From a virus (Duplodnaviria; Caudoviricetes): a DNA stretch of 55,419 nt. How positions within the stretch are numbered: position 1 is the stretch's first letter; the number at the start of each line of letters is the position of its first letter. The stretch lies in IMG/VR virus record IMGVR_UViG_3300010397_000014, positions 1 to 55,419 of that record; one strand, written 5' to 3'. Made by a program: the position numbers and the translations under genes. Shown here in pieces: positions 10,420 through 23,932 of this stretch. The notes under the pieces are model-generated. The model had not been told where the DNA came from. It did no database searches and was given only the letters and a program-made list of their open reading frames with translations.

Positions 10420-10638
10420 ATGAACGGCGAAAGCCTCTTCCTCGACGATTCCGACTTGGTGCGACTCACTGACCGGAAGCGCAAAAGCAAGCAGATCGAA
10501 TGGCTGAGGCAGAATGGCATTCCCTTCCGGGTCAACGCGACCGGCCATCCTGTGGTCACCCGGGCCTCGATATTGGGCCACCAGAACCAGCAGGAAGCCC
10601 CGGCGCGCGGCTGGACACCGAGGGTGATCGGAGCATGA
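10420..10638 (+). CDS. excisionase-like protein (DUF4224)
   Basis: FLDDSDLVRLTDRKRKSKQIEWLRQNGIPF...GHPVV; directly upstream of int. Confidence 0.85.
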   Translation: MNGESLFLDDSDLVRLTDRKRKSKQIEWLRQNGIPFRVNATGHPVVTRASILGHQNQQEAPARGWTPRVIGA

Positions 10639-11768
10639 GAACGATGGGACGAAAGCCGAGCCGCTGGAGCAACCTGCCCAAGGGTATGCGCGCTCGGCCG
10701 CGTGGCAACATGGTGCACTACTACCTGGACACCGGGGCCAAGCCGCGCAAGGAGATCCCGCTGGGCAGCGACTACGTGCGGGCGGTCCAAAAGTGGGCAG
10801 AACTGACCAGTAGGCCAGCGCCGGCAGCGGCCGTCCTGACGTGGCCGGATGCCGTGAAGGCATACCGCAAGGATGTGCTGCCCGGCAAGGCGCCGCGCTC
10901 GCAGAGCGACAATGAAACCCAATTCGAGTGGCTGGCCAAGTTCTTCGGGGATCCGCCGGCGCCGCTGGACAGTATCGAGCCGGTGCACATCCGGCAGTAC
11001 ATGAAGTGGCGCGTGCAGCAGGCCCGCATCCTGGCCGAGGCCAAGAATGAGGAATGCAGGCGTGCTGACAGGCCGTTGCAGCCCATCGCGGACGACATCG
11101 GCCACGTGCGCGCCAACCGCGAGAAAGCTCTGTTCTCGCACGTGTGGAACTATGCCCGCGGCGAGGGCATGACCAGCAAGCCCAACCCCTGCGCCGGTAT
11201 CCACGGATACACCGAGGAAGGCCGCGACGCCGCGCCGGACGCCGAGCTGGTGCAACTGGTACTGGACAAAGCCGACAAGCCCCTGGAGTTCGCCATGCGC
11301 CTGGCCGACATCATCGGGCAGCGTCCTGCCGATGTGCTGCGCGTGAGCGAGAAACACATCAGGGGAGAAATTCCGGGAGGCATCCTGGAGGTGCAGCAGG
11401 GCAAGACGAAGGCCAAGCTGCGCATCGTGATCGAAGGGCTGCTGGCATCCCTGCTCCTGGAAATAAAGGCATGGAAGAAAACGCTTGAGCAGGAGCACAA
11501 GGTTTACTCGATGGCGCTGCTGGTCAACGAAAGCGGCAAGGCGCTGTCCAAACACATGCTGCGCGATCGCTTCGACGATGCCCGCGCTCGGGCCGGCGTC
11601 AAGAAGGATCTGTTCCAGTTCCGGGACTTCCGCGCGAAGGTGGCCACCGAGACAGACGAGGCCGAAGGAACGCGCGCCGCACAAGCAATCCTTGGGCATA
11701 CCACAGAGGGAATGACCGCCGATTACATCCGCCACAAGGTCGGGAAAAAGGTGAGGCCGATCAGGTGA
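10635..11768 (+). CDS. int: tyrosine integrase
   Basis: GQRPADV, FRDFRAK, LGH and DY catalytic motifs; adjacent to attP (alternative start at 10644). Confidence 0.95.
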   Translation: MRTMGRKPSRWSNLPKGMRARPRGNMVHYYLDTGAKPRKEIPLGSDYVRAVQKWAELTSRPAPAAAVLTWPDAVKAYRKDVLPGKAPRSQSDNETQFEWLAKFFGDPPAPLDSIEPVHIRQYMKWRVQQARILAEAKNEECRRADRPLQPIADDIGHVRANREKALFSHVWNYARGEGMTSKPNPCAGIHGYTEEGRDAAPDAELVQLVLDKADKPLEFAMRLADIIGQRPADVLRVSEKHIRGEIPGGILEVQQGKTKAKLRIVIEGLLASLLLEIKAWKKTLEQEHKVYSMALLVNESGKALSKHMLRDRFDDARARAGVKKDLFQFRDFRAKVATETDEAEGTRAAQAILGHTTEGMTADYIRHKVGKKVRPIR

Positions 11769-11771
11769 CCT

Positions 11772-12335
11772 ATGGGACGAGCACGAACTGAATCCAATGC
11801 GAACTTGCCGCCCGGCATGCTGGCCAGGAAGCGCGGCAGTGGCGTTTACTACTATCTAAGTCGCAGCGACGGCAATAGGCGCGTTGAAGTTCCACTTGGC
11901 AACGCGCTGGCGCAGGCGCTAACCGAATACCACTTGGTCACGCATCACACGAAGCGGCCGATCATAGACATCGTAGCGACCGCCGGAGAACTCTACCGTA
12001 GAGCCCGCAAAGGTGCGCGGCAGCGCGCTATCCAATTCGACCTGACTCTTGCCGATGTGGAGCGCCTACTCGTCCAATCTGACAAGCGATGCATGCTCAC
12101 CGGGATACCTTTCGACCTTGCGCGCACGGACGGAGTGCGCCGGAGGCTTTGGGCGCCGAGCATAGACAGGATCAAGTGCGATCTCGGCTATGCAGTTGGC
12201 AACGTGCGGGTGATCGCAGTCGCGGTGAACGTTGCAATGAGCGATTTCGGCGAGGAATTTCTGCTGCGAATCGCGCACGCGTTGGTGGTTCGGCAGCGCA
12301 CTTCAAGGCAGGGAATTGCGGAAGTCGCGGAATAG
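11772..12335 (+). CDS. HNH/His-Me-like endonuclease with an integrase-like N-terminal domain
   Basis: N-terminus aligns by eye to int residues 1-60; C-terminus CMLTGIPF...SIDRIKCDLGYAVGNV...VN. Confidence 0.75.
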   Translation: MGRARTESNANLPPGMLARKRGSGVYYYLSRSDGNRRVEVPLGNALAQALTEYHLVTHHTKRPIIDIVATAGELYRRARKGARQRAIQFDLTLADVERLLVQSDKRCMLTGIPFDLARTDGVRRRLWAPSIDRIKCDLGYAVGNVRVIAVAVNVAMSDFGEEFLLRIAHALVVRQRTSRQGIAEVAE

Positions 12336-12541
12336 CGGAAGTAATTAGTCAGTGTGCGCTATCGCTAAAAACAGCGCCAATTGGTAGGACGTACAAGATT
12401 CGAACTTGTGACCAACGGATTAAAAGGCCACCGGGAACCGAGCCGAAATCAAGCACTTAGGCCGCGATCTGTTCCGCAATTATTGCAAATTGCCCATCGG
12501 CAGAGCGAGCAGTGGCGCGGCCCTTTTGAGTTTTGCGGAAT
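12316..12541. promoter_or_regulatory. putative integrase arm-type sites (GCGGAA repeats)
   Basis: GCGGAA at 12318, 12327, 12335 and 12535; inverted TTCCGC at 12472; they flank the core. Confidence 0.6.
12382..12426 (-). other. attP core: 3' half of tRNA-Lys(UUU)
   Basis: Reverse complement CTTTTAATCCGTTGGTCACAAGTTCGAATCTTGTACGTCCTACCA: anticodon loop TTT, T-arm GTTCGAATC, CCA end; no 5' half. Confidence 0.9.
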
Positions 12542-12543
12542 AG

Positions 12544-12572
12544 AAAAAACGCCCCGACCGTGAGGCCGAGGC
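12544..12572 (-). terminator. intrinsic terminator ending the late transcript
   Basis: Minus strand CGCCTCGGCC-TCAC-GGTCGGGGCG-TTTTTT. Confidence 0.75.
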
Positions 12573-12611
12573 GCTGAAGGGCTTTCGCCCGAGGAGACAG
12601 CCATCGGCTGT

Positions 12612-12845
12612 TCAGGACCCGACCGGCTCTCCGTCGCCGTGCCAGGTGAATTGATTGACCGGCAGGCGCCGGCCGCACAGGAGGCAATAGCAGTCCGTCT
12701 TGCTGGCCGGGTCGAGCGCCATGCTCACCGCATCGGTCAGGCGCATCATCGAAACGAAACCGCAGAAGGTGTGCCGCACGCGAGTACGCATCGGACGCTT
12801 GAACCCCTGCTCCAGGTCATAGGCGGATAGCTCGGCAACCATCAT
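12612..12845 (-). CDS. hypothetical zinc-binding protein
   Basis: HTFCG...YCLLC; ATGA overlap. Confidence 0.65.
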   Translation of the reverse strand: MMVAELSAYDLEQGFKRPMRTRVRHTFCGFVSMMRLTDAVSMALDPASKTDCYCLLCGRRLPVNQFTWHGDGEPVGS

Positions 12846-13279
12846 GCTTTCCCCTGCAGCAAAGCGGCCATGACTTCGGGCGTCTGAGGGACGTTGACCA
12901 GATCCCAATGCTTCTGGCCCCCGACGCGCACGCCGAAATAGAAATCGTCAGCCAGGGCTTCGTCGTAGCCCATCGCAATGACCATCTCCCGGAGGATCCG
13001 GTCGCAGACGTCGCGCGGGTAACGCTGGCTCGTGTAGAGCCCGTCGTGGATGTACCCGGCCTCGTCCGCTTTGCCGCCTGCGAGTAAAAAGATCAGCGGC
13101 GCGCGCGGGATGCTGCAGCCGTCAGTCACGAACCCCGCGGGCGAGCCGACCCAATCGTTGACGACCAGCGAATAAAACCAGATCGGCGCCAGCAGCTTCT
13201 TCAGGATGACCGGGCGTTCCTGAATTTTCAGCACCGGAACGAAGGGCACCTCGAAGTGAGGGACGAGAATGGCGCTCAC
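12842..13279 (-). CDS. DUF1353 family protein
   Basis: PAGFVTDGCSIPR...IHDGLY...CDRILRE...GVRVGG. Confidence 0.85.
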   Translation of the reverse strand: MSAILVPHFEVPFVPVLKIQERPVILKKLLAPIWFYSLVVNDWVGSPAGFVTDGCSIPRAPLIFLLAGGKADEAGYIHDGLYTSQRYPRDVCDRILREMVIAMGYDEALADDFYFGVRVGGQKHWDLVNVPQTPEVMAALLQGKA

Positions 13280-13306
13280 GTCAATTTCCCGTTCGTGATA
13301 AAGGCC

Positions 13307-13543
13307 TCACGGCTCAATCCTCTTCACGTAGACGCGCGGCTCGCGCAACTCGGACTCGGACGTGTAGAACCGATGCACCTGTACGACCTCGAACTTCTGG
13401 TGCAGAACTTTCGAGAAGTCGTTGAGTTCCAGCAGGTCGCCGACACGCGGCACCTCGCTGCCGCGCAGCGTGCCCCAGAACTGGCGCTCGCGCACGGGCT
13501 TGTCGGCGTCGTACAGGTACAGGTCGAACCTGTCGTTCATCAC
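13307..13543 (-). CDS. hypothetical protein
   Basis: ATGA overlap with the upstream gene. Confidence 0.6.
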   Translation of the reverse strand: MMNDRFDLYLYDADKPVRERQFWGTLRGSEVPRVGDLLELNDFSKVLHQKFEVVQVHRFYTSESELREPRVYVKRIEP

Positions 13544-13782
13544 ATGCCGACGGGACGCTTGTCCAGTCCCTTTTCCGCCAGCACGACGGCCACATCATCG
13601 ATGTGCAGGCAGTCGCACATGCAGGCATAGTCCGAGGCGGGTTGAATCACCGCGATGCTGCCGTTGCAGTAATCGTTGCCCGGAACCGCGCTGTGCAGCA
13701 CGCCGTAAGCGACAACCTTGCCGCCTTCCAGTTTGACGATCTTGTCGCCGTTCCTGGCCTCGCGGCCGTTTCTGTAGTGCAT
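13540..13782 (-). CDS. hypothetical Cys/His protein (MHYRNGREARNGD)
   Basis: AAGGA RBS then ATG at 13782. Confidence 0.75.
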   Translation of the reverse strand: MHYRNGREARNGDKIVKLEGGKVVAYGVLHSAVPGNDYCNGSIAVIQPASDYACMCDCLHIDDVAVVLAEKGLDKRPVGM

Positions 13783-13828
13783 GATTTTCCTTTCGGTGGT
13801 TGAGAGAAATTGAGAGTTGGCGGCCGGC

Positions 13829-13894
13829 TTACAGCACGACGCCCCAAGCCGCCCAGACAGCGAGCCAATAGGCATCAGCGGCGAGCAGGCTCAT
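13829..13894 (-). CDS. 21-aa hydrophobic micropeptide MSLLAADAYWLAVWAAWGVVL
   Basis: ATG overlaps the stop of the upstream lysis gene (ATGA); almost entirely hydrophobic. Confidence 0.35.
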   Translation of the reverse strand: MSLLAADAYWLAVWAAWGVVL

Positions 13895-14490
13895 GGCTTC
13901 ACGTCCAGCGTTGCCGGCCCTGGAGGCAGCAGGACGGGCGCGAAGCTCGGAAGCAGACTCAGCGCCTTTCCCGCGATCGCCTGCCCCTGGAATGCCGTGC
14001 TGGCGCCCTCGGTCACTTCGAGCGTGAAGCCGCCGTCGATGAGACTCGCCTTGATGACGCGGGCGCTGTATTCCTTGCCGTCCGCGGCGGTGAACTTGTA
14101 GGCCGTCTTGCCGTCAATGACCACGGGCTCAAAGGCGTAGGACGAATGGCCCGCATCGCTCAGGGATGTGCACCCGGAAACCGCTCCCGCCAGCGCCACA
14201 ATCCCGGCGATCAGGACCAGCAACGGCCATTCAGCAAATCCGCCCTCCGCGGGCTTGACAGGCGAGGCTCCAGCAGCCGCGGCGGGCTGGGCTGGTACTG
14301 GTGTGGCGTCAGCAGGCTTCGGAGCGTCTGCGGGGCCGCTGGCGACGTGGAATATCCCGAGCGCCGTCAGCACGGCGAAACACGCCCCGACAATGGCCCC
14401 GGTGTCCAGATCAGGCCAGAAGTGTTTGCCGATGATCGCGGCAACCCAGATGATTGCGGCGAGAGTGCCGATGTATATTTTCGTGCCCAT
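13891..14490 (-). CDS. lysis-cassette membrane protein: 2 TM helices, Pro/Ala linker, internal lipoprotein signal (holin/spanin candidate)
   Basis: AAGGA RBS; directly after the endolysin; EGGF...LAGAVSGC. Confidence 0.75.
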   Translation of the reverse strand: MGTKIYIGTLAAIIWVAAIIGKHFWPDLDTGAIVGACFAVLTALGIFHVASGPADAPKPADATPVPAQPAAAAGASPVKPAEGGFAEWPLLVLIAGIVALAGAVSGCTSLSDAGHSSYAFEPVVIDGKTAYKFTAADGKEYSARVIKASLIDGGFTLEVTEGASTAFQGQAIAGKALSLLPSFAPVLLPPGPATLDVKP

Positions 14491-14503
14491 GATTTCCGTC
14501 CTT

Positions 14504-14986
14504 TCAGTTGTCTTGTGCGGCCCACCGCAGGTTTTTCGCATCGCGCCTGATCCAGCCGCGCCCGAACGTGTCGAACTTCCTGAGCATCGCGTAAAACTCC
14601 AGGCGCTCGGCATGGAACAGCAGCACCAGGTCTGCCGGGTTGACGCGTCCGATCGCGGCCAGCGTGACCGGCCCGATCTCGCCGTCATCGGCAACACCAG
14701 CAGCGCGCTGCATCCATCGCACGGCGTTTTCGATGCCGTGGTTTACTGCTGCGTCGAGGGCCTGGAATGCGAAGCAACGCGGCAGCTCGTCGCCGCTTAC
14801 TCGGTCCCAAAAGTCCGTGCGGTAGATCGCAATCGCGCCGTCGCGCGTCAGGGCCTTGATGTCCAGGTCCGGGTAGCTGCGCTTGGAAATGCCGAAGTTC
14901 GTTTCCCCACCGGGGTCGTCTTTGTTCCAGACATAGCCGCCCTCGTTGGCCAGCACGCGGCCGATCAGGTCGTCAAAGGTGCTCAC
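14504..14986 (-). CDS. endolysin, glycoside hydrolase family 108 with PG-binding_3 tail
   Basis: EGGYVWNKDDPGGETNFGIS; FDTFGRGWIRR. Confidence 0.92.
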   Translation of the reverse strand: MSTFDDLIGRVLANEGGYVWNKDDPGGETNFGISKRSYPDLDIKALTRDGAIAIYRTDFWDRVSGDELPRCFAFQALDAAVNHGIENAVRWMQRAAGVADDGEIGPVTLAAIGRVNPADLVLLFHAERLEFYAMLRKFDTFGRGWIRRDAKNLRWAAQDN

Positions 14987-15330
14987 TCCCGGCCATCCCT
15001 CGGCTTGTTGTACTGGGTTGGTCCCGTCGTCAGCATCTTGGCGTGGTCGGCCTCCACTTTCTCCATGCGAAACTTCATGATCGCCAGCTCTCCCGTGTTC
15101 GCGATGGTCTGGTTATTGCCGGTCTGCACCGCAATCTTCAGTTCGGCCATGCCCTGCAAAATCTGCTGCTGCTGCATCTGCATGGTGATCAGCCAGTAGG
15201 CAATGGCTCCGAGTCCGGCGAGCACGCCAACCAGCGGTATCTTGAAATCAATCGAGCGGGCAATCGCTACCGCGGCAAGCGGCATGCGCCCGCTGTCGCG
15301 TGGCTCGTCTTCGTTTCTCGGCGGTGTCAT
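14983..15330 (-). CDS. single-TM protein with coiled coil (holin/antiholin candidate)
   Basis: TM IPLVGVLAGLGAIAYWLI; coupled to the endolysin. Confidence 0.6.
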   Translation of the reverse strand: MTPPRNEDEPRDSGRMPLAAVAIARSIDFKIPLVGVLAGLGAIAYWLITMQMQQQQILQGMAELKIAVQTGNNQTIANTGELAIMKFRMEKVEADHAKMLTTGPTQYNKPRDGRE

Positions 15331-15453
15331 GTCTTCCGTCCTTCTGGCCGCTGTGCAGCCTCGTCGTCCTCGTGGGGGGTCATGCTCTATCCCTTTGGAA
15401 ATGGCTTGCACCAGTTGCCCGGCTTCTGGGCTGTTCCGGTCATAATTGACGCC

Positions 15454-15666
15454 ATGAGCGCGGAAGCAACTCTTGAAATCAAGGTCATCACGGCGCACGC
15501 CGACTTGATGCGCGAATTGCTGGCAGAGCATCCCGTGCGCTTCACCGACGACGGGCGCTGGGTCGAGCGGACTTTCACCGCCACAGGCTCGGCCAGCGCC
15601 ATTGCGGCCCTAGAAGTCGCAGTCGAGCGCTTTAGATTCAAGCGCTTACAGGAAGACGCTTGGTAG
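15454..15666 (+). CDS. small counter-oriented (moron-like) hypothetical protein
   Basis: -10-like CATAAT 7 nt before ATG, no RBS; fills the gap between tail and lysis genes. Confidence 0.5.
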   Translation: MSAEATLEIKVITAHADLMRELLAEHPVRFTDDGRWVERTFTATGSASAIAALEVAVERFRFKRLQEDAW

Positions 15667-15667
15667 G

Positions 15668-17155
15668 TCATAACAGCGGGCCAATGGCGGCAGCCCAATA
15701 CGGCGCGATGATGGCCGTACAGGCGACATTCGGGTGTATGCCGTCCGGGTAGTACCCTGCGCTGTATGTGCCCACCGTCGGATCAGAGGTGATGTCGATC
15801 AGATGCCAGCCAAGGCCCGCCGCGTTCGCCTGGAGCCAGGAAACATAGGTCGCACGCTCAGTGGCAGGTCCCGCCCCAAGCCCGGCCGGGGTCGTGACAG
15901 CCACCACAAAAACAGCCCCTGTGCCGGTAACGGCGTTACCCACGGTCTGGATGTCCGCAATGAGTTGCGCCCCGGTGCGGCTGCCTATGTTGATGTCGTT
16001 GATGCTGCGCTGTTCGACCACCACGCAATTCGCCCCACCGTACCGGGTCAGGAGCGCGCCGATAGTGCTGGCGTAATTGGTGACGGTGTTCTGTAGCTGG
16101 AATCCGCTTTGCGAGATGTTGTAGATTCGGCACTCGGGCATCGAGCGGCGCGCCTGCGGCACGATCCCGTAATAGTTCAAGGCCGCCGTGTAGCTGCCCG
16201 CGATGCTGTCCCCGTCGATGATCAGGCGCTTCCTGCTCGGTGCGGGCGTGATCCCGAACATGCTAGCCATCTTCTGCTTGAGGGCGGTCGCGGTTGCGGC
16301 GTCCTGTCGTGCGTTGTAGAACAGCGCACATCCGAAGAAGAAGTAGCCCTTGTAGAGCCCGCTGGTAGCCGTGCTGCCTAGCTGCCCGCCGGTGAAGGCG
16401 ACATTCGTAGAGCTTTCGACCGTAGCCAGAGTTTCGTCGTTCTGATAAAAGAATAAACCGCCCTGCGCCGTCGTGCCCATGTGGTACTCGTACACGCTGG
16501 GACGGCAGTCAGGAGAAACGGTCTGCGTGACGCTGCCGGGATTTGCGCGCACCCATCCCAGGTATGTCGTATTCGGGAGTTGCAAAGTCCCCTGACTGGC
16601 GACGGTGGCAGAAGTCCCCATCTGGAACAGCACGTTGTCAACGCCAAAACTCAGCGGCGTCTCAGCCACAGCGAAACCATGCGCATTGCGCGTGCTGGCG
16701 CTAATCGCTCCTGCCGGAAGCGTCATGAACTGATTGGCGAACGTCGGAACAAAACCACCATTGATCGCAACAGACAGATTCGCCACTGGCCGGCTTGCGC
16801 CGGTAGTTTGTGTGGCGTGATTTCCGCCTCCGGTCTGGTCGTAGATCAGGTCCACGGCGCCTGTCGTACCCGACAGAAACGAGGTCAATCCCGCCAGGTT
16901 CGCAGTTCCATCGGCTTGATACGCCACGTCATAGGTGGCCGAGTCGGACGCCCTCACCACGCGGAACAAGGCCCCCGTCCAGTCGCCAGTCAGCCGACGC
17001 GAGCCATAGGCCGACGCGGGCCGATTGCTGGCGTTAAACAGGTAATTGGTCCTGCGACTGCCCAACACAATCCTGCGCACTGCCGGAGACATAGCCCCAC
17101 ACTGCGCCGCAATCCCCCCTCCTGCCGCGCCGATCAACAGATCCCTGCGTCTCAC
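15668..17155 (-). CDS. Tat-signal protein: ConA/arabinofuranosidase-B-like domain plus SGNH/GDSL esterase
   Basis: MRRRDLLIGAAGGG; AYGSRRL...FRVVRASD; GDSI, ND and DGIHPN esterase motifs. Confidence 0.8.
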   Translation of the reverse strand: MRRRDLLIGAAGGGIAAQCGAMSPAVRRIVLGSRRTNYLFNASNRPASAYGSRRLTGDWTGALFRVVRASDSATYDVAYQADGTANLAGLTSFLSGTTGAVDLIYDQTGGGNHATQTTGASRPVANLSVAINGGFVPTFANQFMTLPAGAISASTRNAHGFAVAETPLSFGVDNVLFQMGTSATVASQGTLQLPNTTYLGWVRANPGSVTQTVSPDCRPSVYEYHMGTTAQGGLFFYQNDETLATVESSTNVAFTGGQLGSTATSGLYKGYFFFGCALFYNARQDAATATALKQKMASMFGITPAPSRKRLIIDGDSIAGSYTAALNYYGIVPQARRSMPECRIYNISQSGFQLQNTVTNYASTIGALLTRYGGANCVVVEQRSINDINIGSRTGAQLIADIQTVGNAVTGTGAVFVVAVTTPAGLGAGPATERATYVSWLQANAAGLGWHLIDITSDPTVGTYSAGYYPDGIHPNVACTAIIAPYWAAAIGPLL

Positions 17156-17733
17156 AGGACAACCCCGGATAGAGTGATGATCTTGACCGCACCCGACGTA
17201 GCGATGTATCCCCCGTTCGTGACGAGATACGCGAACACCCCCGTCCCGGCCAGCTTGATCTGCCGGTTGATCTGGTCGGCCTGCACGAACAGCGTTGAGC
17301 CCAGATCGGCAGGAGAACCAAGGTCGATATAGCCAAGGTATGAAGCCCTGTCACCGGATGGAAGATCCCACGCGGCGTCATCGGCAAGGGCGCTCGGAGG
17401 CGTGACCGAGTACAGGTACAGCCTGAAACTCGTCATCCCCGATGGAATCGAAGTAACGTCGATTTCCAGGGACGCCGATGTGATCAGAACACTGGAGCCG
17501 CTCGGAGCGAGGCTTGCAAGACTGATCACCGCCGTAGGCGAGCCACCGATCACGTCGTTTGCCGTGTAGGTCGTCGTGTTGGCCGGTCGGGTCACTGTGG
17601 CTGTAACGCTGAACGCCGTCGTTGCCCCCACCGCAGGAAGCCCGGTCATTCCCGGATTGGTGACGACCTGCCCGAACGCCAGCAATGGAGCCAGCATCAG
17701 GGCGAAAAGGAAAAGCGAGAGTTTGCGAATCAT
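17152..17733 (-). CDS. beta-rich tail-region protein with Sec signal peptide
   Basis: MIRKLSLFLFALMLAPLLAFG|Q; TRPANTTTYTANDVIG motif. Confidence 0.75.
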   Translation of the reverse strand: MIRKLSLFLFALMLAPLLAFGQVVTNPGMTGLPAVGATTAFSVTATVTRPANTTTYTANDVIGGSPTAVISLASLAPSGSSVLITSASLEIDVTSIPSGMTSFRLYLYSVTPPSALADDAAWDLPSGDRASYLGYIDLGSPADLGSTLFVQADQINRQIKLAGTGVFAYLVTNGGYIATSGAVKIITLSGVVL

Positions 17734-17750
17734 GGTGTGCTCCGGTGAAG

Positions 17751-19775
17751 TTAGGCGGCGGTCATCGCCGTGGTGAATCTGTGATGCGCCCGTACCACGG
17801 CCCTGATCGGGCTGGCGTTGCGGTCGCTGGGCGCCGGGTGGGTGATCGTCAACGTGAAGGTGGGCACCATCTCGCCGGCACTCCCGGCCCAGGTCCAGCC
17901 GCCGATCGCCACACTGATCCCGGGGGAGGCGTCAGCCACCTCCGACACCAGAACGGCGGAGTGAATCGCCGCGGAGCTTGATTGCTTGCGGGTCCATGAC
18001 GCGAAGAACGTGCCCTTGTACAGGTCGAAGTCGTTGAACGAGTTGGAAACGCAGCGCATCTCCAGATCGATCTCTATGTCGGACCCGGCGTTCTGCTGCA
18101 CCGGAACAGTGATCGTGACGGTGAAGTTGGTCGTCGTCCCGCTGTTGGGCAGGGCGTTGACTATCAGTTCATTGGGCGCCGGCCCGGCGGCGTGCGTGGA
18201 CAGCATGACGCTCTGGCGGCCGTCCAACATGCCGCCGACGCCATGCCCGTAATGCCGGTCGCACTCCACCACGCCGGCCCAGAAGTCGCCGCCCCAGACA
18301 ATCGGGGTGGCGCTCTCGCTTGACCCGCCTTCAACGATGATGGTCTTGGTGGCGCTGTTGTTGTTGTGGACGATCCTGGCCGTGCCTTCCAGGGTCGGCT
18401 CGACGATGCGCAGCACCGAAGCGCCGGCTTCCCCGAAGTTGCAGATGATGTCGCCGCGGTGCCGGTTGCTTCCAAGCACCGGGTACGCCGCCGAGGCGTT
18501 CAGGCTGGCGATGATCACCGCATCCTCGAAATACCCGCCGTCGATGACAGCGCCGAAACCGTAGCCCTGCAAGTACAGCCCCGCCGTGCCGTTGCTGTAG
18601 GTGTGCGGCGCCGGGTCCATCTGCAAGCCGGCGCACGTCGCCGGGTTGATCCCGTAGCGCCCGTTGTTGTGGTAGTAGCCGCCCTCGATCTGGATGTCGG
18701 TCGGCTTGACGCCTTCGGTGCGGACACCGTCGCGGCCGTTGTGGTGCCCGGCGCACTGCACCATGCGGGTGTTCGGCATGGTGTTGCTGATGGTGCTACC
18801 TGCTTTGTTGGCGCCAGTTGGAACAAAACCGTCGTTGGTCCCGCCCATCCACTCCACGTATTCAAACGTTGAGTTCCAGCTCATGTGCTTGTGCACGTCG
18901 GCGCAGACCCCATTGCCGTCGAACACGATGTTGCGCATGTGCACCGGGTTGCCGACATAGCCGGCGTTGTTCACCCAGTTGTCGCTGGCCACCCCGTAGG
19001 AGGCGTCTCCGCCCGCGATGCACTTGAGCGTGGCCCGCCCGCCTGGGCATTCGAGGGTCCAGTCCGCCGTGTTCGGGAACGTCAGGTTCGTGAAGCAGTA
19101 GGTCCTGCCCGCCGTCAGGATGACGTGATTTGAGGCATCGAACGTGGCCTGAAGCGCCGCAGTGTCGTTCGCTATTCCATTGGCAACAGCGCCAGCCGAC
19201 TCAGGCTGCGAGCCTATCCTCAGCAGCGCATCGGCAACAGTCCCAGAGCCATAACCGACTGTTGCCGCTCCTCCAGAGGACGAGAGCGCGGTCAACGATG
19301 CTTTTTCGCTGTCCAGTTCGTTAAGGGCGGCCTGGACGGTTGTCGCAGCGATGTTTCCGGCCGGCTGGTTTCCAATCAGGGCCGCCCCGCCTGAAGCGGC
19401 GTACGTCACCTCTGATGGGGCCTTGGCATTGATCTGAGCCTGAATATTGGAAGTCACCCCAACGAGCTTGTTCATCTCGCCCGCCGAGGCGTTGACCGGG
19501 CTGGTCACGTTCGGGAAGGTGTCAACGATGCTGAAAAGCTCGATGGCCTGCGTGAACCCGGGGCAGCTCAGCGTATAGACGCCGTTGGCCGCGTAGAAAT
19601 CCACCCCCCCGCGAGCGTCAGTGGTCAGCGGGTTGGCCTTGGGTGTAATCCCATTGTCGGAATAGAGCGATGCGACCGGCCCGCCTGGAGTCGCCCCGCG
19701 CGTGACCAGCACTACCAGCCCAACCAGCACTTCGCCGTGCACGTCCTGAAATGGGGTTGAATAGTAGTGCTGCAT
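17751..19775 (-). CDS. tailspike / depolymerase with right-handed beta-helix
   Basis: Head-binding N-terminus (LYSDNG..ANPLTTDARG), TTVQAALNELD, GAVANGIANDTAALQA, Asn/Gly parallel-beta repeats. Confidence 0.85.
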   Translation of the reverse strand: MQHYYSTPFQDVHGEVLVGLVVLVTRGATPGGPVASLYSDNGITPKANPLTTDARGGVDFYAANGVYTLSCPGFTQAIELFSIVDTFPNVTSPVNASAGEMNKLVGVTSNIQAQINAKAPSEVTYAASGGAALIGNQPAGNIAATTVQAALNELDSEKASLTALSSSGGAATVGYGSGTVADALLRIGSQPESAGAVANGIANDTAALQATFDASNHVILTAGRTYCFTNLTFPNTADWTLECPGGRATLKCIAGGDASYGVASDNWVNNAGYVGNPVHMRNIVFDGNGVCADVHKHMSWNSTFEYVEWMGGTNDGFVPTGANKAGSTISNTMPNTRMVQCAGHHNGRDGVRTEGVKPTDIQIEGGYYHNNGRYGINPATCAGLQMDPAPHTYSNGTAGLYLQGYGFGAVIDGGYFEDAVIIASLNASAAYPVLGSNRHRGDIICNFGEAGASVLRIVEPTLEGTARIVHNNNSATKTIIVEGGSSESATPIVWGGDFWAGVVECDRHYGHGVGGMLDGRQSVMLSTHAAGPAPNELIVNALPNSGTTTNFTVTITVPVQQNAGSDIEIDLEMRCVSNSFNDFDLYKGTFFASWTRKQSSSAAIHSAVLVSEVADASPGISVAIGGWTWAGSAGEMVPTFTLTITHPAPSDRNASPIRAVVRAHHRFTTAMTAA

Positions 19776-19784
19776 GGCGGCTCG

Positions 19785-20171
19785 TCAGAATCCTGCGGTC
19801 AGGGAAACGCTGGCTCCGGTCCCACTGATCGAAGTCACGTTGCCGCGTAGATGCAGGTACTTGTCCTGGCTGGTGCAGCCGTTGCTCGCCGTGGTCGTGG
19901 AAAGCGACAGCGTGACGGAACAAATCGGCGGGGAATCCCAGCTCAAGCCGCTATTCATCGAGCCTTCAATGCTGACGACAGCCGTCCCTGTGCCGGCGGT
20001 GGTGCTGCCCCAGACCGAATAGGTCTTGGCGCCGGCCGTGCGGTTGGCTGAGACGATCGCGCCTGCCGCAACCGAGTTGGCCCCGTTCAGGATCGCTACC
20101 TGCGCCAGGGCGAGCTGCGCAACAATGAGGCTGGCCGCGAACGCCAGGGGGATTAGAAAGCGACGGCTCAT
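19785..20171 (-). CDS. small beta-sandwich tail-region protein with signal peptide
   Basis: MSRRFLIPLAFAASLIVAQLALA|Q; VSIEGSMNSG..W; two Cys. Confidence 0.75.
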   Translation of the reverse strand: MSRRFLIPLAFAASLIVAQLALAQVAILNGANSVAAGAIVSANRTAGAKTYSVWGSTTAGTGTAVVSIEGSMNSGLSWDSPPICSVTLSLSTTTASNGCTSQDKYLHLRGNVTSISGTGASVSLTAGF

Positions 20172-20200
20172 AGTGGAGTGCTCCTGAGGTGGTGGAAATG

Positions 20201-20223
20201 AAAAAGCCGCGCAAAGGCGGCTT
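20201..20223 (-). terminator. intrinsic terminator
   Basis: Minus strand AAGCCGC-CTTTGC-GCGGCTT-TTT. Confidence 0.7.
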
Positions 20224-20235
20224 AGAATCTGAAAA

Positions 20236-20463
20236 ATGGAAGACGGGTCGTTCTTGCGGTCTATCGCTGGCGCAGTTGGCGTTCTCTTCTGGGTCTGGGT
20301 CTGGGCGCTATCTGACCGAATAGCCGAGCGCCGTGCCCGCCGATTGGGGCACCGGCCCCATGATCCGAGCCAGGCGATTTACCGTCTGGGGGTCAAGCTG
20401 GGCCGCCGTTTCGGGAAGCTGCGCCGCAAGCGCGTTCTTTACCTGCCCCCGCTCCTGAAATGA
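20236..20463 (+). CDS. small counter-oriented membrane protein (superinfection-exclusion candidate)
   Basis: TAGAAT 6 nt before ATG; one TM and a basic tail; overlaps the 3' end of the last ejection gene. Confidence 0.45.
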   Translation: MEDGSFLRSIAGAVGVLFWVWVWALSDRIAERRARRLGHRPHDPSQAIYRLGVKLGRRFGKLRRKRVLYLPPLLK

Positions 20464-22512
20464 CGCGATCGGCTTCACGATGATGTCGTGGATGTAGGGC
20501 GAGCCCTTCACTTTGCCGACGATCTTGGACAGCATGTTCGCCACTGCGGCCCCGGTGTTGGATTCGTTCACCGCAGATCCCGCCGGCCGCTGCTGGATGT
20601 AGGCCATCACCCGCCCGATCGCGAACAGGTCGTCCGTCTGTTGCGGGCCGAGAATGGCCTCCAGCTTGTTCTTGCCGATGCTGGTCAATTCGTCATTTAA
20701 CGATGCTTGCTTCCCGGACCCATCGCCTGCGGCATTGGCGCCGAATGCTTTCTTTTGCAGGTAGGACATCATCTGCTGCTGCATGGTCTTCTGCCCGTCG
20801 GCCCCAAGCAGTTCGGCCATCTTGTTCAACTCGCGCACCTTGCCGTTGATGACGTATTTGCGCACGAAGTCATCCGGTTCCGCCGAGTTGATTGCCGCTT
20901 TCAGTGCCGGCGCGCTGTCGATTGCCGAGAATCGCTCGCTCGCCTTGCCGCGGGCGAAGTTGGCAAGGGTCGCCGCTTCCATGCCAGCGCCGGTATCGGT
21001 CGCCCCGATGATGGCGTTCTGCACGTGGCCGCGCAGTTCGTCCAGCGCCTTGGCCTGCGCCTGATCGGCCGGGTTGTAGTTTTTGTTGATGGTCTTGATC
21101 AGGCGCTCGGCGTCATCGATGGATAGCGTGCGCACTACTGGCGCAGCAGCTTCCTCATAGCCTCGATAGGCCAGTTGGCGCGCTGTCTCTGGCGCCGAAG
21201 TGGCTCCGTGCGAATGAGGAACTTTCGGCCCGCTTAGGATTTCATCGAATTGCTTGCGAACGGCGCTCGGGATGGTGTCGCCAAAGTCCTTGAGAGTGGC
21301 CGCGTAGCCCTCTTTCATTGGGTCGAGCGGGACCGGAAGCTCTTTGCCAGTAGAGTCCCTGAATGCTTGGTAAGCCGCCCGCACATCGCCGGCCATCTCC
21401 TTGTCCTTGCTCTGGAGCTGGGCTACCAGCGATTGCCCGGCTTCGTAGGGGTTTTTCGCGCCGGCCGCGCCCTGGCGGAACTTCGACGCGATGACGCCTT
21501 GCTGTTCATTCAGGCGGTTCGCGATCGGCTCGCCGACTCCCTGAATCCCGCGCAGGTCCAGCTCCCGCGCGTACTGCGTCGGGTTGCGCGTAACCTGGCC
21601 CAACAGCGGCTGCACGCCTACGCGATCGAAGTCCATTTTGCGCAGCAGCGACGGCGCATCGATCTCCCGGCCAGAGGAAAGCGCCTGTTGCGCCTCGGCG
21701 GTCATCTTGTCCAGAACGATCTTGGGGATTTGACCGATATCGATGTCGTCTTGCGCCAGCGATGCCTTCAGCTCCAGCTGGATCGCCTCCGGCGTCTTGT
21801 TGATAGCGCCATTGCGCATCTTGTCGGTGACGTAGCGCGCGACCGATTCAGATGCCTTGGTCAGTGCCGGGGTCAGCAAAGCGCCAGTCAGCGCACCAAC
21901 GCCTGCCTGCTTGGCTTTGTCGGTCCAGAAGTCATCCGTCATGACCGGCTGCGTCACAGCGCCTGCGGCGCCGGCCGTCGCGCCCTTCAGGGCTAGTTTC
22001 GGGATGCTGTTGCCGATGGCCGGTACCGGCAGCACTCGGCCCACTGCGGCATTGACCGGGCTCACCACGTTTCCCGCTAGGCGCACCAGATCGGTCCCGG
22101 TCTGCCCCGTGGCTTTGCGTGCGGCCTCATACTCCTGATTCGAGCCGCGGATATCGGCGGTCAGCTGGTCGGGGCTGGCGCCTTTGATGCCGAGAACGTC
22201 TCCGGTAAACGTTCCTTCGCCACCGATGGCGTTCGCAGCGCTGTTGACGGCATTCACAAGCCGGTCAGGCAAGACCCGCTGCACCAACTGCGCTGCGGCA
22301 TCGATCGGGTCTTTCATGCCCTTGGCAAGGCGCATCGGGACGCTGGCCAGCAGGTTCTGGCGATCCGTCGGAGCGGCCGGCGGGGCGCTGGCGTCCAGCC
22401 ACTCGGAAGGAACGGCCATGCCGTTGCCTTTGAGCTTCGTCACCAGATCGGCCTTGGTCGTGCCGTCCGGGACGTTTTGGATCACTGTCCCGTCGGGTAG
22501 GCGAACGTCCAT
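20308..22512 (-). CDS. DNA ejection protein (P22 gp16-like position)
   Basis: MDVRLPDGTVIQNVPDGTT N-terminus; Ala-rich helical; third of the trio. Confidence 0.75.
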   Translation of the reverse strand: MDVRLPDGTVIQNVPDGTTKADLVTKLKGNGMAVPSEWLDASAPPAAPTDRQNLLASVPMRLAKGMKDPIDAAAQLVQRVLPDRLVNAVNSAANAIGGEGTFTGDVLGIKGASPDQLTADIRGSNQEYEAARKATGQTGTDLVRLAGNVVSPVNAAVGRVLPVPAIGNSIPKLALKGATAGAAGAVTQPVMTDDFWTDKAKQAGVGALTGALLTPALTKASESVARYVTDKMRNGAINKTPEAIQLELKASLAQDDIDIGQIPKIVLDKMTAEAQQALSSGREIDAPSLLRKMDFDRVGVQPLLGQVTRNPTQYARELDLRGIQGVGEPIANRLNEQQGVIASKFRQGAAGAKNPYEAGQSLVAQLQSKDKEMAGDVRAAYQAFRDSTGKELPVPLDPMKEGYAATLKDFGDTIPSAVRKQFDEILSGPKVPHSHGATSAPETARQLAYRGYEEAAAPVVRTLSIDDAERLIKTINKNYNPADQAQAKALDELRGHVQNAIIGATDTGAGMEAATLANFARGKASERFSAIDSAPALKAAINSAEPDDFVRKYVINGKVRELNKMAELLGADGQKTMQQQMMSYLQKKAFGANAAGDGSGKQASLNDELTSIGKNKLEAILGPQQTDDLFAIGRVMAYIQQRPAGSAVNESNTGAAVANMLSKIVGKVKGSPYIHDIIVKPIASFQERGQVKNALAAQLPETAAQLDPQTVNRLARIMGPVPQSAGTALGYSVR

Positions 22513-22513
22513 T

Positions 22514-23923
22514 TTATTTCAGGCTCCGAAAGTCAACGACACCGGGGGTTGCCGGGGGCGTAGCAGTCGCCCGGCTGTAGTTCGGCAGCGTCGAATCCGG
22601 CAGGCCCGCCGCCCTGCGCTGTTCCATCAGGTTCGTCGCCTGCGCCCCCATCACCATCCGGTAATGCTGAATCGCGCCCTTCAGTTGCGCCGGAGAACTG
22701 GCACTGCTGAAAATCTTGGCCGCTTCGTCGCGCTCGGCCATGCTGCCACCGCCGGCAACGATCGCCTTCACCACTTCCTGCCCGACGATGTTCTTGATCG
22801 CGTCGAAGTTCGTCACGTTCGGGGAGCCGGTTTGCGTGGCGAAGTAGTTCTGGACCTTGTTGACGACTTGCATGTTGCCGTTGTTCATCGCATCGGCCAA
22901 TTCCCCCAGCTGGTCCAAGTGGGCGTTGGCGGTGGATACCGAGCGCAGCGCGTTCCCGAGCGGGCCACTGGTGAATGCCGTCGCCGCGGCTTTCTTGGCC
23001 GTCACGGTGGTCGCGTCGTACTGCGGGTTGATTTCCATCACCCGGCCGAGCAGGCGCTGATTCTTGGGGTTGAGCAGGGCGATTCCGGTTGGCGCCGGAA
23101 GTTGTCCGCTGGCGATGGCCTGCGCGGTGCGCTCGCTGTTCTCGTCCATCGTGCCACCCTGCCCGATGCCGGCCACCTGCAAGTCCTTGGCGATGTTGGC
23201 CGCATTGTTCGCCCGCGAAGTGCTGGCCTGAAGCTGCGCGTCCGGGCTTTGCGTGTTCTTGACGCTGGACACAACCTGCGCCGCGCCACCCATCCCCGGA
23301 ATGGTGAGCACGTCGGTGCTACCTCCGGTGTTGCGGACCTGCACGTTGGGCTTGTTCAGCTCCGTGAACTTGGTCGCGCCGAGTGCGAATTGCTGCTTCC
23401 ACGCTGGAATCTGCGCAGCGTCCTGAGGAATCTCAGCGAGCCATTGAGCAAGCGGAACCCGGCTGATGGCCGAGTCTTTGAGCAATGGGTCGCTGTGCAT
23501 GGCCGTCACCAGCGCGGCGGCGCCTTGCGGGTCGGTGATGTTTTGCGACTGATCGCGGTATTGGGAAATCCGTTGATGCCCAGCTTCGCCGAGAGCCTTG
23601 GTCGCCTTCGCCGCCGCATCCTGCGTTTGCGCTTCCGTGAGTTTTTGCTTGAGCTGAGTCTCGATCATCCCCGGCGCGCTCAGCGGGGCAACCTTGAACG
23701 CCGCAGCCCGACCCTCTGGCGTGCTCAAGTCTCCGCCGCTGGACAAGTGCTGCATCAGCGCATTCATGTCCGCGTCGGTGCGCTGGGCCTTGCTCAGCGA
23801 ATACTGCGCCAGATCGTTCTGGTTCTGCGCCCCTTTGATCTGCATGACCTGGGCCATCATGTTCAGCGGCGATTCGATCTGCATGGGCTTGACGCCCAGG
23901 GCAATGCTGGAATCAATCGGCAT
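22514..23923 (-). CDS. DNA ejection protein (gp20-like position)
   Basis: MPIDSSIALGVKP N-terminus; Ala/Gln-rich. Confidence 0.7.
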   Translation of the reverse strand: MPIDSSIALGVKPMQIESPLNMMAQVMQIKGAQNQNDLAQYSLSKAQRTDADMNALMQHLSSGGDLSTPEGRAAAFKVAPLSAPGMIETQLKQKLTEAQTQDAAAKATKALGEAGHQRISQYRDQSQNITDPQGAAALVTAMHSDPLLKDSAISRVPLAQWLAEIPQDAAQIPAWKQQFALGATKFTELNKPNVQVRNTGGSTDVLTIPGMGGAAQVVSSVKNTQSPDAQLQASTSRANNAANIAKDLQVAGIGQGGTMDENSERTAQAIASGQLPAPTGIALLNPKNQRLLGRVMEINPQYDATTVTAKKAAATAFTSGPLGNALRSVSTANAHLDQLGELADAMNNGNMQVVNKVQNYFATQTGSPNVTNFDAIKNIVGQEVVKAIVAGGGSMAERDEAAKIFSSASSPAQLKGAIQHYRMVMGAQATNLMEQRRAAGLPDSTLPNYSRATATPPATPGVVDFRSLK

Positions 23924-23932
23924 GGTCGCTCC

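Follow-up and report, generated by a model that had tools for sequence, protein, structure and literature searches.

According to textbooks, tailed phages are put together entirely in the cytoplasm, and phage proteins which are exported are viewed as lysis, exclusion or conversion factors. Sec signals occur in phage envelope proteins such as Llp (T5), Cor (phi80/T1), Lom/Bor (lambda) and the spanins, and RI (T4) is reportedly an exported phage envelope protein. They are lipoproteins, barrels of the outer membrane or regulators of holins, are not known to have virion-type homologues, and in some cases are encoded beside receptor-binding genes. Decoration proteins such as lambda gpD and T4 Hoc/Soc attach to the outer face of capsids that are already complete. 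TNF/C1q-like domains are usually trimeric glycan binders. The branched tailspike system of the phage G7C gp66/gp63.1 type reportedly combines an adaptor with an esterase; its N-terminal peptides are docking elements, and it is assembled in the cytoplasm from proteins lacking signal peptides. XepA (PBSX, Bacillus subtilis) is made late and is reported to be exported and absent from particles (PMC6834076).

The window, that is, the whole stretch of 55,419 nucleotides that was analysed, is a contig of a temperate P22/BPP-1-like podovirus from a soil metagenome, with a tyrosine integrase encoded at 10500-11768. No DNA relative of this stretch was found among cultured phages. Two small proteins with predicted Sec signals, gpA and gpB, and an esterase-like protein, gpC, are encoded around a tailspike gene ahead of the lysis genes, as follows:

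20308..22512, minus strand: gene of the last conserved protein of internal/ejection type, 734 aa (context, upstream)
20204..20223, minus strand: terminator-like hairpin with a 7-bp stem and a T run, separating gpA from the gene of the last ejection protein (scan and sequence)
19785..20171, minus strand: gpA, 128 aa, predicted Sec-type signal followed by a ~105-aa jelly-roll domain
17751..19775, minus strand: tailspike-like protein, 674 aa, without signal, lying between gpA and gpB
17152..17733, minus strand: gpB, 193 aa, predicted Sec-type signal, N-terminal peptide, short linker and TNF/C1q-like jelly roll
15668..17155, minus strand: gpC, 495-aa ORF, Tat-like N-terminus, lectin-like beta-sandwich and putative C-terminal SGNH/GDSL esterase
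14504..15531, minus strand: lysis genes (context, directly downstream of gpC)
14983-15531, minus strand: single-TM protein of the lysis region
14504-14986, minus strand: GH108 endolysin with a PG-binding domain, lysis region
13891-14697: lipobox-bearing ORF

The four ORFs from gpA to gpC all lie on the minus strand where the preliminary description had placed them, and begin with the N-termini it had quoted. The hairpin is the upstream border of this four-gene cassette and is separated from the gpA ATG by only ~35 nt. The genes within are tightly packed, with 9 nt between gpA and the tailspike gene, 17 nt between the latter and gpB, and a 4-nt overlap (GTGA) between gpB and gpC. A sigma-70 consensus scan of positions 12000-24000 returned no promoter-like sites where 2.5 were expected, in line with the place of these genes in the late operon. 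In the distant relatives EBPR podovirus 1 and Pseudomonas phage PAE2, the homologue of the 734-aa protein closes the structural operon, and the four genes which follow it here would thus represent an added cassette. The endolysin type and the lipobox-bearing ORF point to a Gram-negative host.

The tailspike-like protein has a non-hydrophobic N-terminus and no signal, as had been noted. A match to phrog_17312 (E 3.8e-8, residues 156-236) and one to a mannuronan epimerase beta-helix (E ~1e-3) weakly suggest a beta-helix tail protein. It starts with a small domain, resembles a beta-helix in its middle part and ends in a beta domain. With tailspike, putative SGNH esterase and small candidate docking modules side by side, the cassette resembles the G7C type, and the wording "adaptors plus lectin-esterase" used previously is a fair description of its anatomy. 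The likeness to the G7C type is not known to extend to sequence homology, and gpA and gpB differ from it in their predicted signals; the G7C tailspike's C-terminal domain is matched weakly by one of 133 gpA-family members (E 0.0049).

The predicted signal of gpA spans residues 1-23 (nt 20103-20171), with two Arg in the n-region, an h-region of ~16 residues and A-L-A followed by Gln. Its ATG is preceded by AGGAG 9 nt upstream, and no other in-frame ATG, GTG or TTG occurs within the first ~55 codons, so that the hydrophobic N-terminus must be translated. In gpB the signal covers residues 1-21 (nt 17671-17733) and comprises an Arg-Lys n-region, an h-region of ~14 residues and A-F-G followed by Gln, with signal and cleavage motif unchanged in close homologues. 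The gpB ATG has GGAG 6 nt upstream, and an internal ATG at codon 29 lacks a usable ribosome-binding site. A true start downstream of the signals was thus found to be unavailable in gpA, and in gpB the internal ATGs are without a ribosome-binding site. A crude signal rule, which asks for a positive n-region, a Kyte-Doolittle mean of 2.2 or more over 10 residues and the absence of acidic residues, was applied to the 262 ORFs of 80 aa or longer in the six frames of the whole stretch and selected exactly two, namely gpA and gpB; when every candidate start is scanned, the same rule falsely marks three major capsid proteins as signal-bearing through upstream ORF extensions. Neither gpA nor gpB has a lipobox with Cys at +1, the surroundings of the cleavage site being free of Cys in both, and they are therefore not lipoproteins of the Llp/Cor type.

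In the comparison of homologues with and without signals, signals were predicted in 5/5 close gpA homologues and in 16/16 members of alignment A4, alike in type but not in sequence. The signal is accompanied by cysteines. Among gpA-family members, at least two Cys occur in the domain of 35/53 signal-bearing but only 6/101 signal-less proteins (Fisher 2e-15), the Cys count in those 35 being always even, while paired Cys are found in 9/16 signal-bearing and 7/104 signal-less members of the gpB family (8e-6). The Cys pair reported for gpA is present (C84 and C99) and would lie, according to the model, on adjoining strands of one hairpin; the mature part of gpB contains no Cys. The Sec signals proposed earlier for gpA and gpB are thus borne out by start codons, conservation among homologues, co-variation with paired Cys and the matching state of the neighbouring gene (see below), and the prediction that both proteins are exported is well supported at the sequence level.

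That the mature parts of gpA and gpB are beta-rich, as had been suggested, agrees with the models, in which both appear as jelly rolls, and the families to which they belong are overwhelmingly viral. The gpA family comprises 239 cluster representatives at 50% identity and the gpB family 1703 matches among 90%-identity clusters; in the Atlas both are 85-100% viral, and their clusters partly carry PF21190. No Pfam family was matched by gpA itself, and across 133 family members the Pfam matches were scattered and weak (F5/8 type C on 6, DUF6385 on 3). Neither gpA nor the signal-less family member P0141 had a tblastn match in cultured phages, and for alignment A1 no relatives were found in viral or genome contigs and a single metagenome locus was recovered. 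The gpB domain (residues ~45-193) is predicted to be an eight-stranded jelly roll (model pLDDT 90), for which Foldseek gives small viral capsid jelly rolls as the top matches (probability up to 1.0; TM 0.26-0.48). It is also grouped with the BclA C-terminal domain, Photorhabdus PLTL and the short-fibre CBD of cyanophage A-1(L), with matches to TNF/C1q-like lectins at a probability of 0.96-1.0 and E of 1e-3 to 2e-3, but with a TM by query of only 0.26-0.35. The gpB family profile gave only chance-level matches against PDB sequences. In lytic phages of Rhizobium and Synechococcus the same domain closes fibre-like proteins that are encoded in tail-fibre clusters, where the genes concerned adjoin pectin-lyase and SGNH genes. 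Bbp16 (Bordetella phage BPP-1) and the KHP40 cement protein share the jelly-roll fold and a similar size at the level of fold only (3j4u_H against the gpA model, TM 0.50; 7dou matching both the gpA and gpB models). Known cement proteins have no signal, and gpA and gpB are encoded in a tailspike cassette rather than beside a capsid gene.

XepA and YomS (PBSX/SPbeta) resemble gpA in being small beta-sandwich proteins whose genes close the late region beside lysis genes, and among PDB folds it is XepA that matches gpA best. However, this match is weak (E 3.8e-3, TM 0.46), none of the 133 gpA-family members matched the XepA family (PF27453) in Pfam at E <= 0.01, and XepA is a two-domain pentamer from a Gram-positive host. 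Neither a peptide-bearing partner gene nor a duality of signal-less and signal-bearing forms is described for it in the available sections of the report (PMC6834076). From the envelope proteins Llp, Cor, Lom/Bor, RI and the spanins, with which they share Sec signals, gpA and gpB differ in the missing lipobox and in their families, the remaining members of which resemble parts of virions.

Normally, a gpA-like gene is followed directly by a fibre-like gene whose product opens with a conserved N-terminal peptide. Among deduplicated IMG/VR loci with an ORF starting within a few nt after the gpA-like gene, this neighbour carried a predicted signal in 7/8 cases after a signal-bearing gpA-like gene and in 0/32 cases after a signal-less one (Fisher 4e-7). 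The N-terminal pattern M-[T/S/A/P]-V/T-x-V/I-N/T-x-x-x-[T/A/S]-G, read by eye, was recognised in 14/32 of the signal-less neighbours and in 5-7 of the 8 signal-bearing loci; in the signal-bearing neighbours and in gpB it stands, again by eye, 0-2 residues past the predicted cleavage site. The peptide of gpB corresponds to residues 22-31 (nt 17641-17670), directly after the predicted site, while gpC read from codon 22 bears only a loose likeness to it. In this phage the tailspike gene parts gpA from gpB. Since gpA-like and gpB-like genes occur together only in this stretch (1 of ~150 loci), it is the by-eye N-terminal peptide alone that pairs gpB with gpA. An apparently recurrent signal-bearing partner of ~371 aa was rejected, three of its four ORFs being major capsid proteins with upstream ORF extensions, and a difference in neighbour density (1.5 vs 0.62 per 10 kb) was contaminated by those capsid proteins and replaced by the adjacency count.

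On a FastTree phylogeny of the gpA-family domain (98 columns), no fewer than 24 changes of signal state were counted (shuffles: mean 44, minimum 36), a number inflated by noise; with the tree reduced to nodes of support 90 or more, no fewer than 9 remained (shuffles: mean 17, minimum 11). The signal-less partners of gpA-like proteins have PHROG matches to a tail protein (L138 and L142), a virion structural protein (L134) and head decoration plus GDSL (L108); these names are remote-homology labels. Relatives without a signal thus have the look of virion proteins. The exported pair is located, in several phages, within head modules or between terL and portal, and it may stand among further signal-bearing small ORFs (four in a row in L084/L116, three in L070). 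The pair is conserved across phages and, in terms of predicted signals, both partners switch their state together. What is new here is this joint switching of a gpA-like/fibre pair between signal-less and signal-bearing forms.

The Tat signal which had been proposed for gpC stands only in part. Codons 2-21 of the longest ORF do encode RR-D-L-L, a Gly/Ala-rich h-region and C-G-A (Tat-like N-terminus at codons 1-21, nt 17093-17155), but ATG22 (17090-17092) is an equally good start and the sole homologue lacks the motif. The GTG of the long form overlaps the gpB stop in a coupling arrangement and has a weak ribosome-binding site; a further alternative, TTG at codon 31, is used in the source gene call (465 aa). 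The only homologue found in a word-limited protein search, P0131 (26% identity), begins level with gpC codon ~20-22 and, judged from the P0131 protein alone, has no twin-arginine signal. As residues 29-35 are conserved with P0131, a start at codon 31 is argued against, while the candidate starts are not told apart by GC3 over the first 21 codons. The Cys of gpC is preceded by Gln, which is disallowed in a lipobox. Downstream, a PF09206-like lectin-like beta-sandwich (residues 49-121) is followed by a PF13472 match (residues 383-478; E 2.5e-4, 22 bits against a cutoff of 32.9), a domain which P0131 also carries; candidate catalytic blocks can be read around residue 315 (G-D-S) and around residue 471 (D-G-I-H). 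No related gpC locus was found in viral contigs, and gpC has no sequence similarity to the 371-aa protein of L070 or the esterase of L108.

As a tentative best explanation, which falls somewhat short of being probable, gpA and gpB, and possibly gpC, would be the exported version of a conserved appendage or decoration module, matured in the periplasm and reaching virions or host glycans at lysis. The module would consist of a small jelly-roll protein and at least one fibre-like protein opening with the conserved N-terminal peptide; in most phages it would be made without signals and resemble a virion appendage or decoration. Here its genes would be transcribed with the late operon, with gpA and gpB passing the inner membrane via Sec and gpC perhaps via Tat. 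Signal peptidase I would cut right before the N-terminal peptide, leaving a mature N-terminus equal to that of the cytoplasmic versions, and folding would take place in the periplasm, with a disulfide formed there in many relatives. The proteins would reach their site of action only once the downstream holin, endolysin and spanin genes open the cell, and would then most likely dock on finished particles beside the tailspike; the alternative is that they work unattached, as esterase and glycan-binding factors. What we infer in this scheme is that the signals are cleaved, that a complex forms, that it docks on virions, and which glycan is the target. As the signal state has switched repeatedly, the same final destination is likely for both forms, and for the signal-less forms action is limited to the cytoplasm, to virions or to the time after lysis. 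Late addition is physically plausible, given that decoration proteins attach to capsids already completed, and docking is kept alive, rather than shown, by the virion-like signal-less relatives and by the peptide kept at the mature N-terminus. Against it, periplasmic proteins are kept apart from capsids until lysis, and the position of exported pairs in head modules or in the terL-portal gap is a typical place for accessory "moron" genes. No precedent of a tailed-phage virion, fibre or decoration protein with a cleaved Sec signal was found in the parts of the literature available, and none is known to us.

The main rival, which we consider rather unlikely, is that the exported module acts within the cell envelope, during infection or lysogeny, and never forms part of the virion. 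In such a case the lectin-like gpA and gpB would bind the host glycan recognised by the tailspike and the gpC esterase would modify it in the periplasm, thereby masking or destroying the receptor, with superinfection exclusion, shielding of progeny from debris or, as proposed for XepA, aid in envelope breakdown as possible outcomes. The well-supported export prediction, the direct abutment of the cassette on the lysis genes and the company of other signal-bearing small ORFs around exported pairs elsewhere all agree with this, and envelope-acting exported phage proteins are an established kind. The fold likeness to XepA, which is described as late, exported and not a virion protein (PMC6834076), speaks in the same direction, as does one nearby Atlas cluster with PF27453 on 22% of its members. 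Against this reading, the fold match is weak and the XepA family was matched in Pfam by none of the 133 gpA-family members. Signal-less pairs would furthermore be barred from the periplasm, in spite of the at least 9-24 switches of state. Late-only expression, as indicated by the missing promoter-like sites, would leave little time for remodelling of surface glycans, the retention of the N-terminal peptide exactly at the mature N-terminus resembles a docking element, and the missing lipobox sets these proteins apart from the Llp/Cor type.

It is improbable that the cassette consists of lysogenic-conversion morons, that is, exported proteins expressed from the prophage which alter the lysogen surface in the manner of Lom/Bor or the P22-like O-antigen modification genes. 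While the phage is temperate with an integrase, and the cassette is inserted relative to EBPR podovirus 1 and PAE2 and preceded by a terminator-like hairpin, the sigma-70 consensus scan gave no promoter of its own, the hairpin lies upstream and not downstream of gpA, and the gap between the two is short. In composition, GC3 is slightly lower only in gpB (0.71) and gpC (0.74) than in core genes (0.78-0.87), with gpA and the tailspike gene being core-like. The genes are moreover interleaved and tightly spaced with an essential tailspike gene, and homologues occur in strictly lytic phages. Equally improbable is a reading in which the N-termini are uncleaved membrane anchors or artefacts of gene calling, with cytoplasmic assembly of the three proteins as for ordinary tail proteins. 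GC-rich upstream ORF extensions can mimic signals, as in the three capsid proteins; gpC is a case of exactly that kind, and translation of gpB from its ATG at codon 29 would yield a protein like the stand-alone homologues. For gpA, however, there is no alternative start, signals are conserved in type across homologues, and neither the association with paired Cys nor the matching state of the neighbour is expected of artefacts, while small residues at -3/-1 followed by the conserved peptide argue for cleavage rather than anchoring.

Taken further, the exported appendage module may point to a second, undescribed assembly route for outer virion parts, in which proteins would be exported via Sec (one enzyme perhaps via Tat), given the same mature N-terminus, folded in the periplasm, often with a disulfide, and added at lysis, a route gained and lost many times and always by both partners; this remains a doubtful proposition. 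The joint switching of both partners between cytoplasmic and exported forms is not explained by the usual picture of tailed-phage assembly. Two almost wholly viral families of appendage- or decoration-like proteins, both large and without annotation, exist in signal-less and signal-bearing versions, with paired Cys coming with the signal. If proteins matured in the periplasm are added to virions at lysis, this would alter the reading of virion proteomes, of host-range modules and of phage engineering; if they are not virion parts, phages would repeatedly have turned appendage modules into exported factors directed at the envelope. Either outcome would represent new biology.

The 55.4 kb virus record, whose DNA was matched in one soil metagenome only by a sequencing-run search, carries a P22/BPP-1-like late operon on the minus strand of the window. 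Its tyrosine integrase, DnaB, methylases and Mom-like gene mark it as a temperate phage. The main features are:

36166-37488 (-), large terminase
33473-35785 (-), portal
31398-32618 (-), major head protein
27730-29133 (-), head-closure protein Hc3
23933-25462, 22514-23923 and 20308-22512 (-), three internal or ejection-type proteins, the last of 734 aa
20204-20223 (-), terminator-like hairpin, including a T run, after the 734-aa gene; the gpA start follows ~35 nt on
19785-20171 (-), gpA, 128 aa
17751-19775 (-), tailspike, 674 aa
17152-17733 (-), gpB, 193 aa
15668-17155 (-), gpC, esterase, 495 aa
10500-11768 (+), tyrosine integrase

The last ejection-type gene is followed by the hairpin, the four genes from gpA to gpC, a single-TM protein, a GH108 endolysin and a lipobox-bearing ORF. 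As the structural operons of the distant relatives EBPR podovirus 1 and Pseudomonas phage PAE2 end at the homologue of the 734-aa protein, these four genes represent an added cassette, and the hairpin inside the late operon could be the trace of a mosaic joint or of a boundary dependent on antitermination. In the lysis region, the ORF at 14983-15531 (-) encodes one TM helix plus a tail of coiled-coil type, while that at 13891-14697 (-), which overlaps the endolysin gene, encodes two or three TM helices and then a lipobox-like L-A-G-A-V-S-G-C motif. The start codons of both are uncertain, and they may constitute a holin plus spanin or unimolecular spanin. A 145-aa ORF (12842-13279, -), oddly positioned after the lysis genes, matches phrog_1158 ('tail assembly chaperone'; E 5e-16) and is followed by a strong terminator-like hairpin (12575-12548).

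The preliminary description assigned Sec signals to gpA and gpB and a Tat signal to gpC, and re-reading of the window returned the same ORFs and N-termini. The gpA ATG has AGGAG 9 nt upstream and no alternative in-frame start for ~55 codons, so that its hydrophobic N-terminus must be translated. The gpB ATG has GGAG 6 nt upstream; an internal ATG at codon 29, the product of which would resemble the stand-alone homologues, lacks a ribosome-binding site. In each protein a basic n-region and an h-region of 14-16 residues lead up to small residues at -3/-1 ahead of Gln, and no lipobox was found in either. By a crude rule of our own, which gave false positives on capsid genes when all candidate starts were scanned, gpA and gpB have the only two signal-like N-termini among the 262 six-frame ORFs of 80 aa or longer. 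The longest major-capsid ORFs of three other viral contigs (L136, 8093-9226; L140, 5165-6280; L156, 2828-3946) begin with a signal-like hydrophobic stretch that is an upstream extension; the same capsid protein has a later start in contig L121. Such extensions call for caution when signals are assigned in GC-rich phage DNA.

A twin-arginine motif and a Gly/Ala-rich h-region are present in the gpC ORF; however, its true start is ambiguous. The GTG overlaps the gpB stop codon in a coupling arrangement and has a weak ribosome-binding site, and alternatives are an ATG at codon 22 (poor site) and a TTG at codon 31 (moderate site). The source database calls a 465-aa gene from codon 31, a start disfavoured by residues 29-35 being common to gpC and P0131, its only homologue found (26 % identity). 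P0131 begins level with gpC codon ~20-22 and has no Tat motif, and GC3 does not discriminate between the starts. The chance that the Tat signal is genuine is placed slightly below even.

Sec-type N-termini precede the same domain in a minority of members of the gpA and gpB families alike, all relatives being metagenomic and unannotated. In the gpA family they occur in 5/5 close homologues, 16/16 members of one alignment (A4), 53/154 representatives and 13/52 viral-contig loci (eight distinct). Among the best 120 of 1703 gpB-family matches 16 carry a signal, as do 2/79 gpB-like viral-contig loci (one protein twice) and 0/17 bacterial-genome loci. At least two cysteines occur in the last 100 residues of 35/53 signal-bearing gpA-family proteins, always in even number, versus 6/101 signal-less ones (Fisher 2e-15), and in the mature part of 9/16 versus 7/104 gpB-family proteins (8e-6; best 120 of 1703). 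The single cysteine pair of gpA, C84 and C99, is modelled on neighbouring strands of one hairpin, and the mature part of gpB has none. This pairing of cysteines with signals is what export to an oxidising periplasm would predict, and would be hard to obtain from gene-calling artefacts.

In a FastTree phylogeny built from the C-terminal 98 residues of 149 gpA-family proteins, with the signal's own columns excluded, the signal state changes at least 24 times on the full tree (41-46 in the first five of 200 runs with shuffled labels; mean 44, minimum 36 in 100 further shuffles). Treating weakly supported nodes as soft polytomies lowers the minimum to 19 changes at support ≥80 (100 shuffles: mean 34, minimum 24) and to nine at support ≥90 (mean 17, minimum 11). 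The upper counts are inflated as the alignment is short. The signal state is heritable, yet has switched repeatedly.

The gpA-like gene and the gene after it also form a conserved pair, newly described here, in which the signal state switches jointly. Among 42 distinct gpA-like loci in IMG/VR, from which one without a downstream ORF and one with a 5'-truncated gpA-like gene were dropped, the ORF starting a few nucleotides from the gpA-like stop was scored for a signal. It carries one in 7/8 cases where the gpA-like protein does (L116, L121, L136, L140, L144, L145 and L156; the exception being L137), versus 0/32 where it does not (Fisher 4e-7). Fourteen of these 32 signal-less neighbours open with the pattern M-[T/S/A/P]-V/T-x-V/I-N/T-x-x-x-[T/A/S]-G, in which Gly occupies residue 11. 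A shift of one or two residues is seen in four more, and the rest comprise seven small-terminase-like proteins and seven others. The pattern-carrying neighbours span 131-738 aa with variable C-terminal parts, and the PHROG names of the signal-less ones, which are remote-homology labels, include 'tail protein' (two), 'virion structural protein' (one) and 'head decoration' (one, with a GDSL domain). Read by eye, the pattern starts 0-2 residues past the predicted cleavage site in the signal-bearing neighbours, and likewise in gpB, where the mature N-terminus would be Q-V-V-T-N-P-G-M-T-G. The signal-less versions have a small second residue and would be expected to lose the initiator Met, so that the signal-less and exported routes would yield nearly the same mature N-terminus. 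From codon 22, gpC loosely resembles a variant of the pattern in locus L142, which would be compatible with a cytoplasmic start at ATG22 or a Tat-like peptide cleaved just ahead of it. In a terminase-level relative (L108; 69 % identical) the gene immediately after a signal-less gpA-like gene encodes a protein of 486 aa that combines the N-terminal pattern with a GDSL domain. Among the loci compared, gpA-like and gpB-like genes occur together in the window only, with the tailspike gene between them.

The start-codon logic, the conserved signals in homologues, the associated cysteine pairs and the concerted neighbour state bear out the Sec assignment: gpA and gpB are very probably exported, and their signals would be cleaved. 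That the N-termini are artefacts or serve other than export is highly improbable.

The folds suggest what is exported. Residues ~45-193 of gpB are predicted to form an eight-stranded jelly roll (pLDDT >95), for which Foldseek returned, at modest TM scores, small viral capsid jelly rolls and TNF/C1q-like domains, with neighbours including BclA, the Photorhabdus lectin PLTL, a cyanophage short-fibre domain and phage cement proteins. The family (1703 matches at E ≤ 1e-3) is 92-100 % viral in the Atlas. Its domain ends ~170-280-aa proteins in lytic Rhizobium phages (a 150-kb myovirus, an N4-like phage and PPF1) and Synechococcus phage S-CBWM1; the three translated Rhizobium-phage proteins have no signal. 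Tail-fibre clusters house three of these four loci; two have a pectin-lyase-fold protein as neighbour and one an SGNH hydrolase as well, while the PPF1 locus is annotated with hypothetical proteins only. In L023 (terminase 70 % identical) a 576-aa protein, weakly matched to an endosialidase N-terminus, is encoded ahead of a signal-less gpB-like gene. Residues 24-128 of gpA form a smaller predicted jelly roll (pLDDT ~96) with weak PDB matches (XepA, YomS, BPP-1 cement protein, CBM4, C1q and Ena pilins) and strong, all viral but uncharacterised, BFVD and Atlas matches; its family comprises 239 cluster representatives at 50 % identity, with no Pfam home. The gpC protein is predicted to combine a lectin-like beta-sandwich (PF09206, residues 49-121) with an SGNH esterase; the 49-121 segment is also present in actinophage proteins that bear minor tail or virion structural annotations. 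In Pseudomonas phage PPpW-3 (L159) the 115-aa ORF-7 (7289-7636) matches the gpA family weakly by sequence (E 4e-5 within that genome) and also by fold. It is the second gene past the capsid-protease fusion gene, the usual site of decoration or head-completion genes. The sole PDB sequence similarity of the tailspike (residues 357-415, E ~1e-3) is to mannuronan C5-epimerases, alginate-modifying beta-helix enzymes, a weak hint that the receptor might be alginate-like or another acidic exopolysaccharide.

Exported relatives occur in other phage types. L084 (7755-8738) and L116 (1-1558) hold four consecutive signal-bearing ORFs between large terminase and portal: two gpA-like genes, one ORF of 101 aa, and one encoding a 377-aa protein that has a beta-helix-like start, a segment resembling tail-fibre repeats, and a signal and mature N-terminus very similar to those of gpB. 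In L121, L136, L140 and L156 the pair lies upstream of scaffold and capsid genes and, in L136 and L140, whose loci extend far enough to show it, after the portal and one further ORF. In the HK97-type head module of L070 (4065-7167), the capsid and cement (PF09956) genes are followed by a signal-bearing gpB-like gene with four Cys and two more signal-bearing ORFs, the first of which starts in a 4-nt overlap. In the closest relatives of the window phage (L107, L108, L110, L111 and L023; TerL 68-71 % identical), the gpA-like or gpB-like genes lack signals and lie shortly before the terminase genes, small and large, instead of following the ejection genes; that of L023 is preceded by a gene for a tailspike-like protein.

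The preliminary description envisaged an appendage docking on virions at lysis, or an exported receptor-modifying module. The main rival to the reading favoured below is a module acting in the periplasm or envelope by receptor masking, receptor modification or as a lysis accessory. Spanins and Llp/Cor are exported phage envelope proteins and offer precedents in kind. Such a role would also fit the position of the cassette beside the lysis genes and the clustering of further exported ORFs in other phages. XepA (PMC6834076) is a further precedent in kind, but XepA family membership was looked for in the gpA family and not found. An envelope role also leaves unexplained how signal-less versions do the same job, and is considered unlikely. 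A lysogenic-conversion moron is still less credible, with a probability as low as that of artefactual N-termini.

With its adaptor- or decoration-like jelly roll and fibres bearing a docking peptide, the module looks like a virion accessory, and this anatomy and the conserved mature N-terminus agree with the docking idea, although no precedent for an exported, signal-bearing tailed-phage virion protein is known or was found in the literature searched. Completed particles (P22, lambda) can take up outer parts such as tailspikes and decoration proteins in vitro, so that docking in the lysate is physically possible, and the tight packing of the late operon around the cassette, where no promoter-like site was found, fits docking at that time. 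Docking itself is doubtful, while an exported appendage-type module acting at lysis time is the tentatively favoured reading. Given the repeated switches, the joint switching of partners and the conserved mature N-terminus, it is easiest to envisage one destination for both versions: exported and cytoplasmic forms alike would finish up extracellularly once lysis has occurred, in the simplest case bound to the particle.
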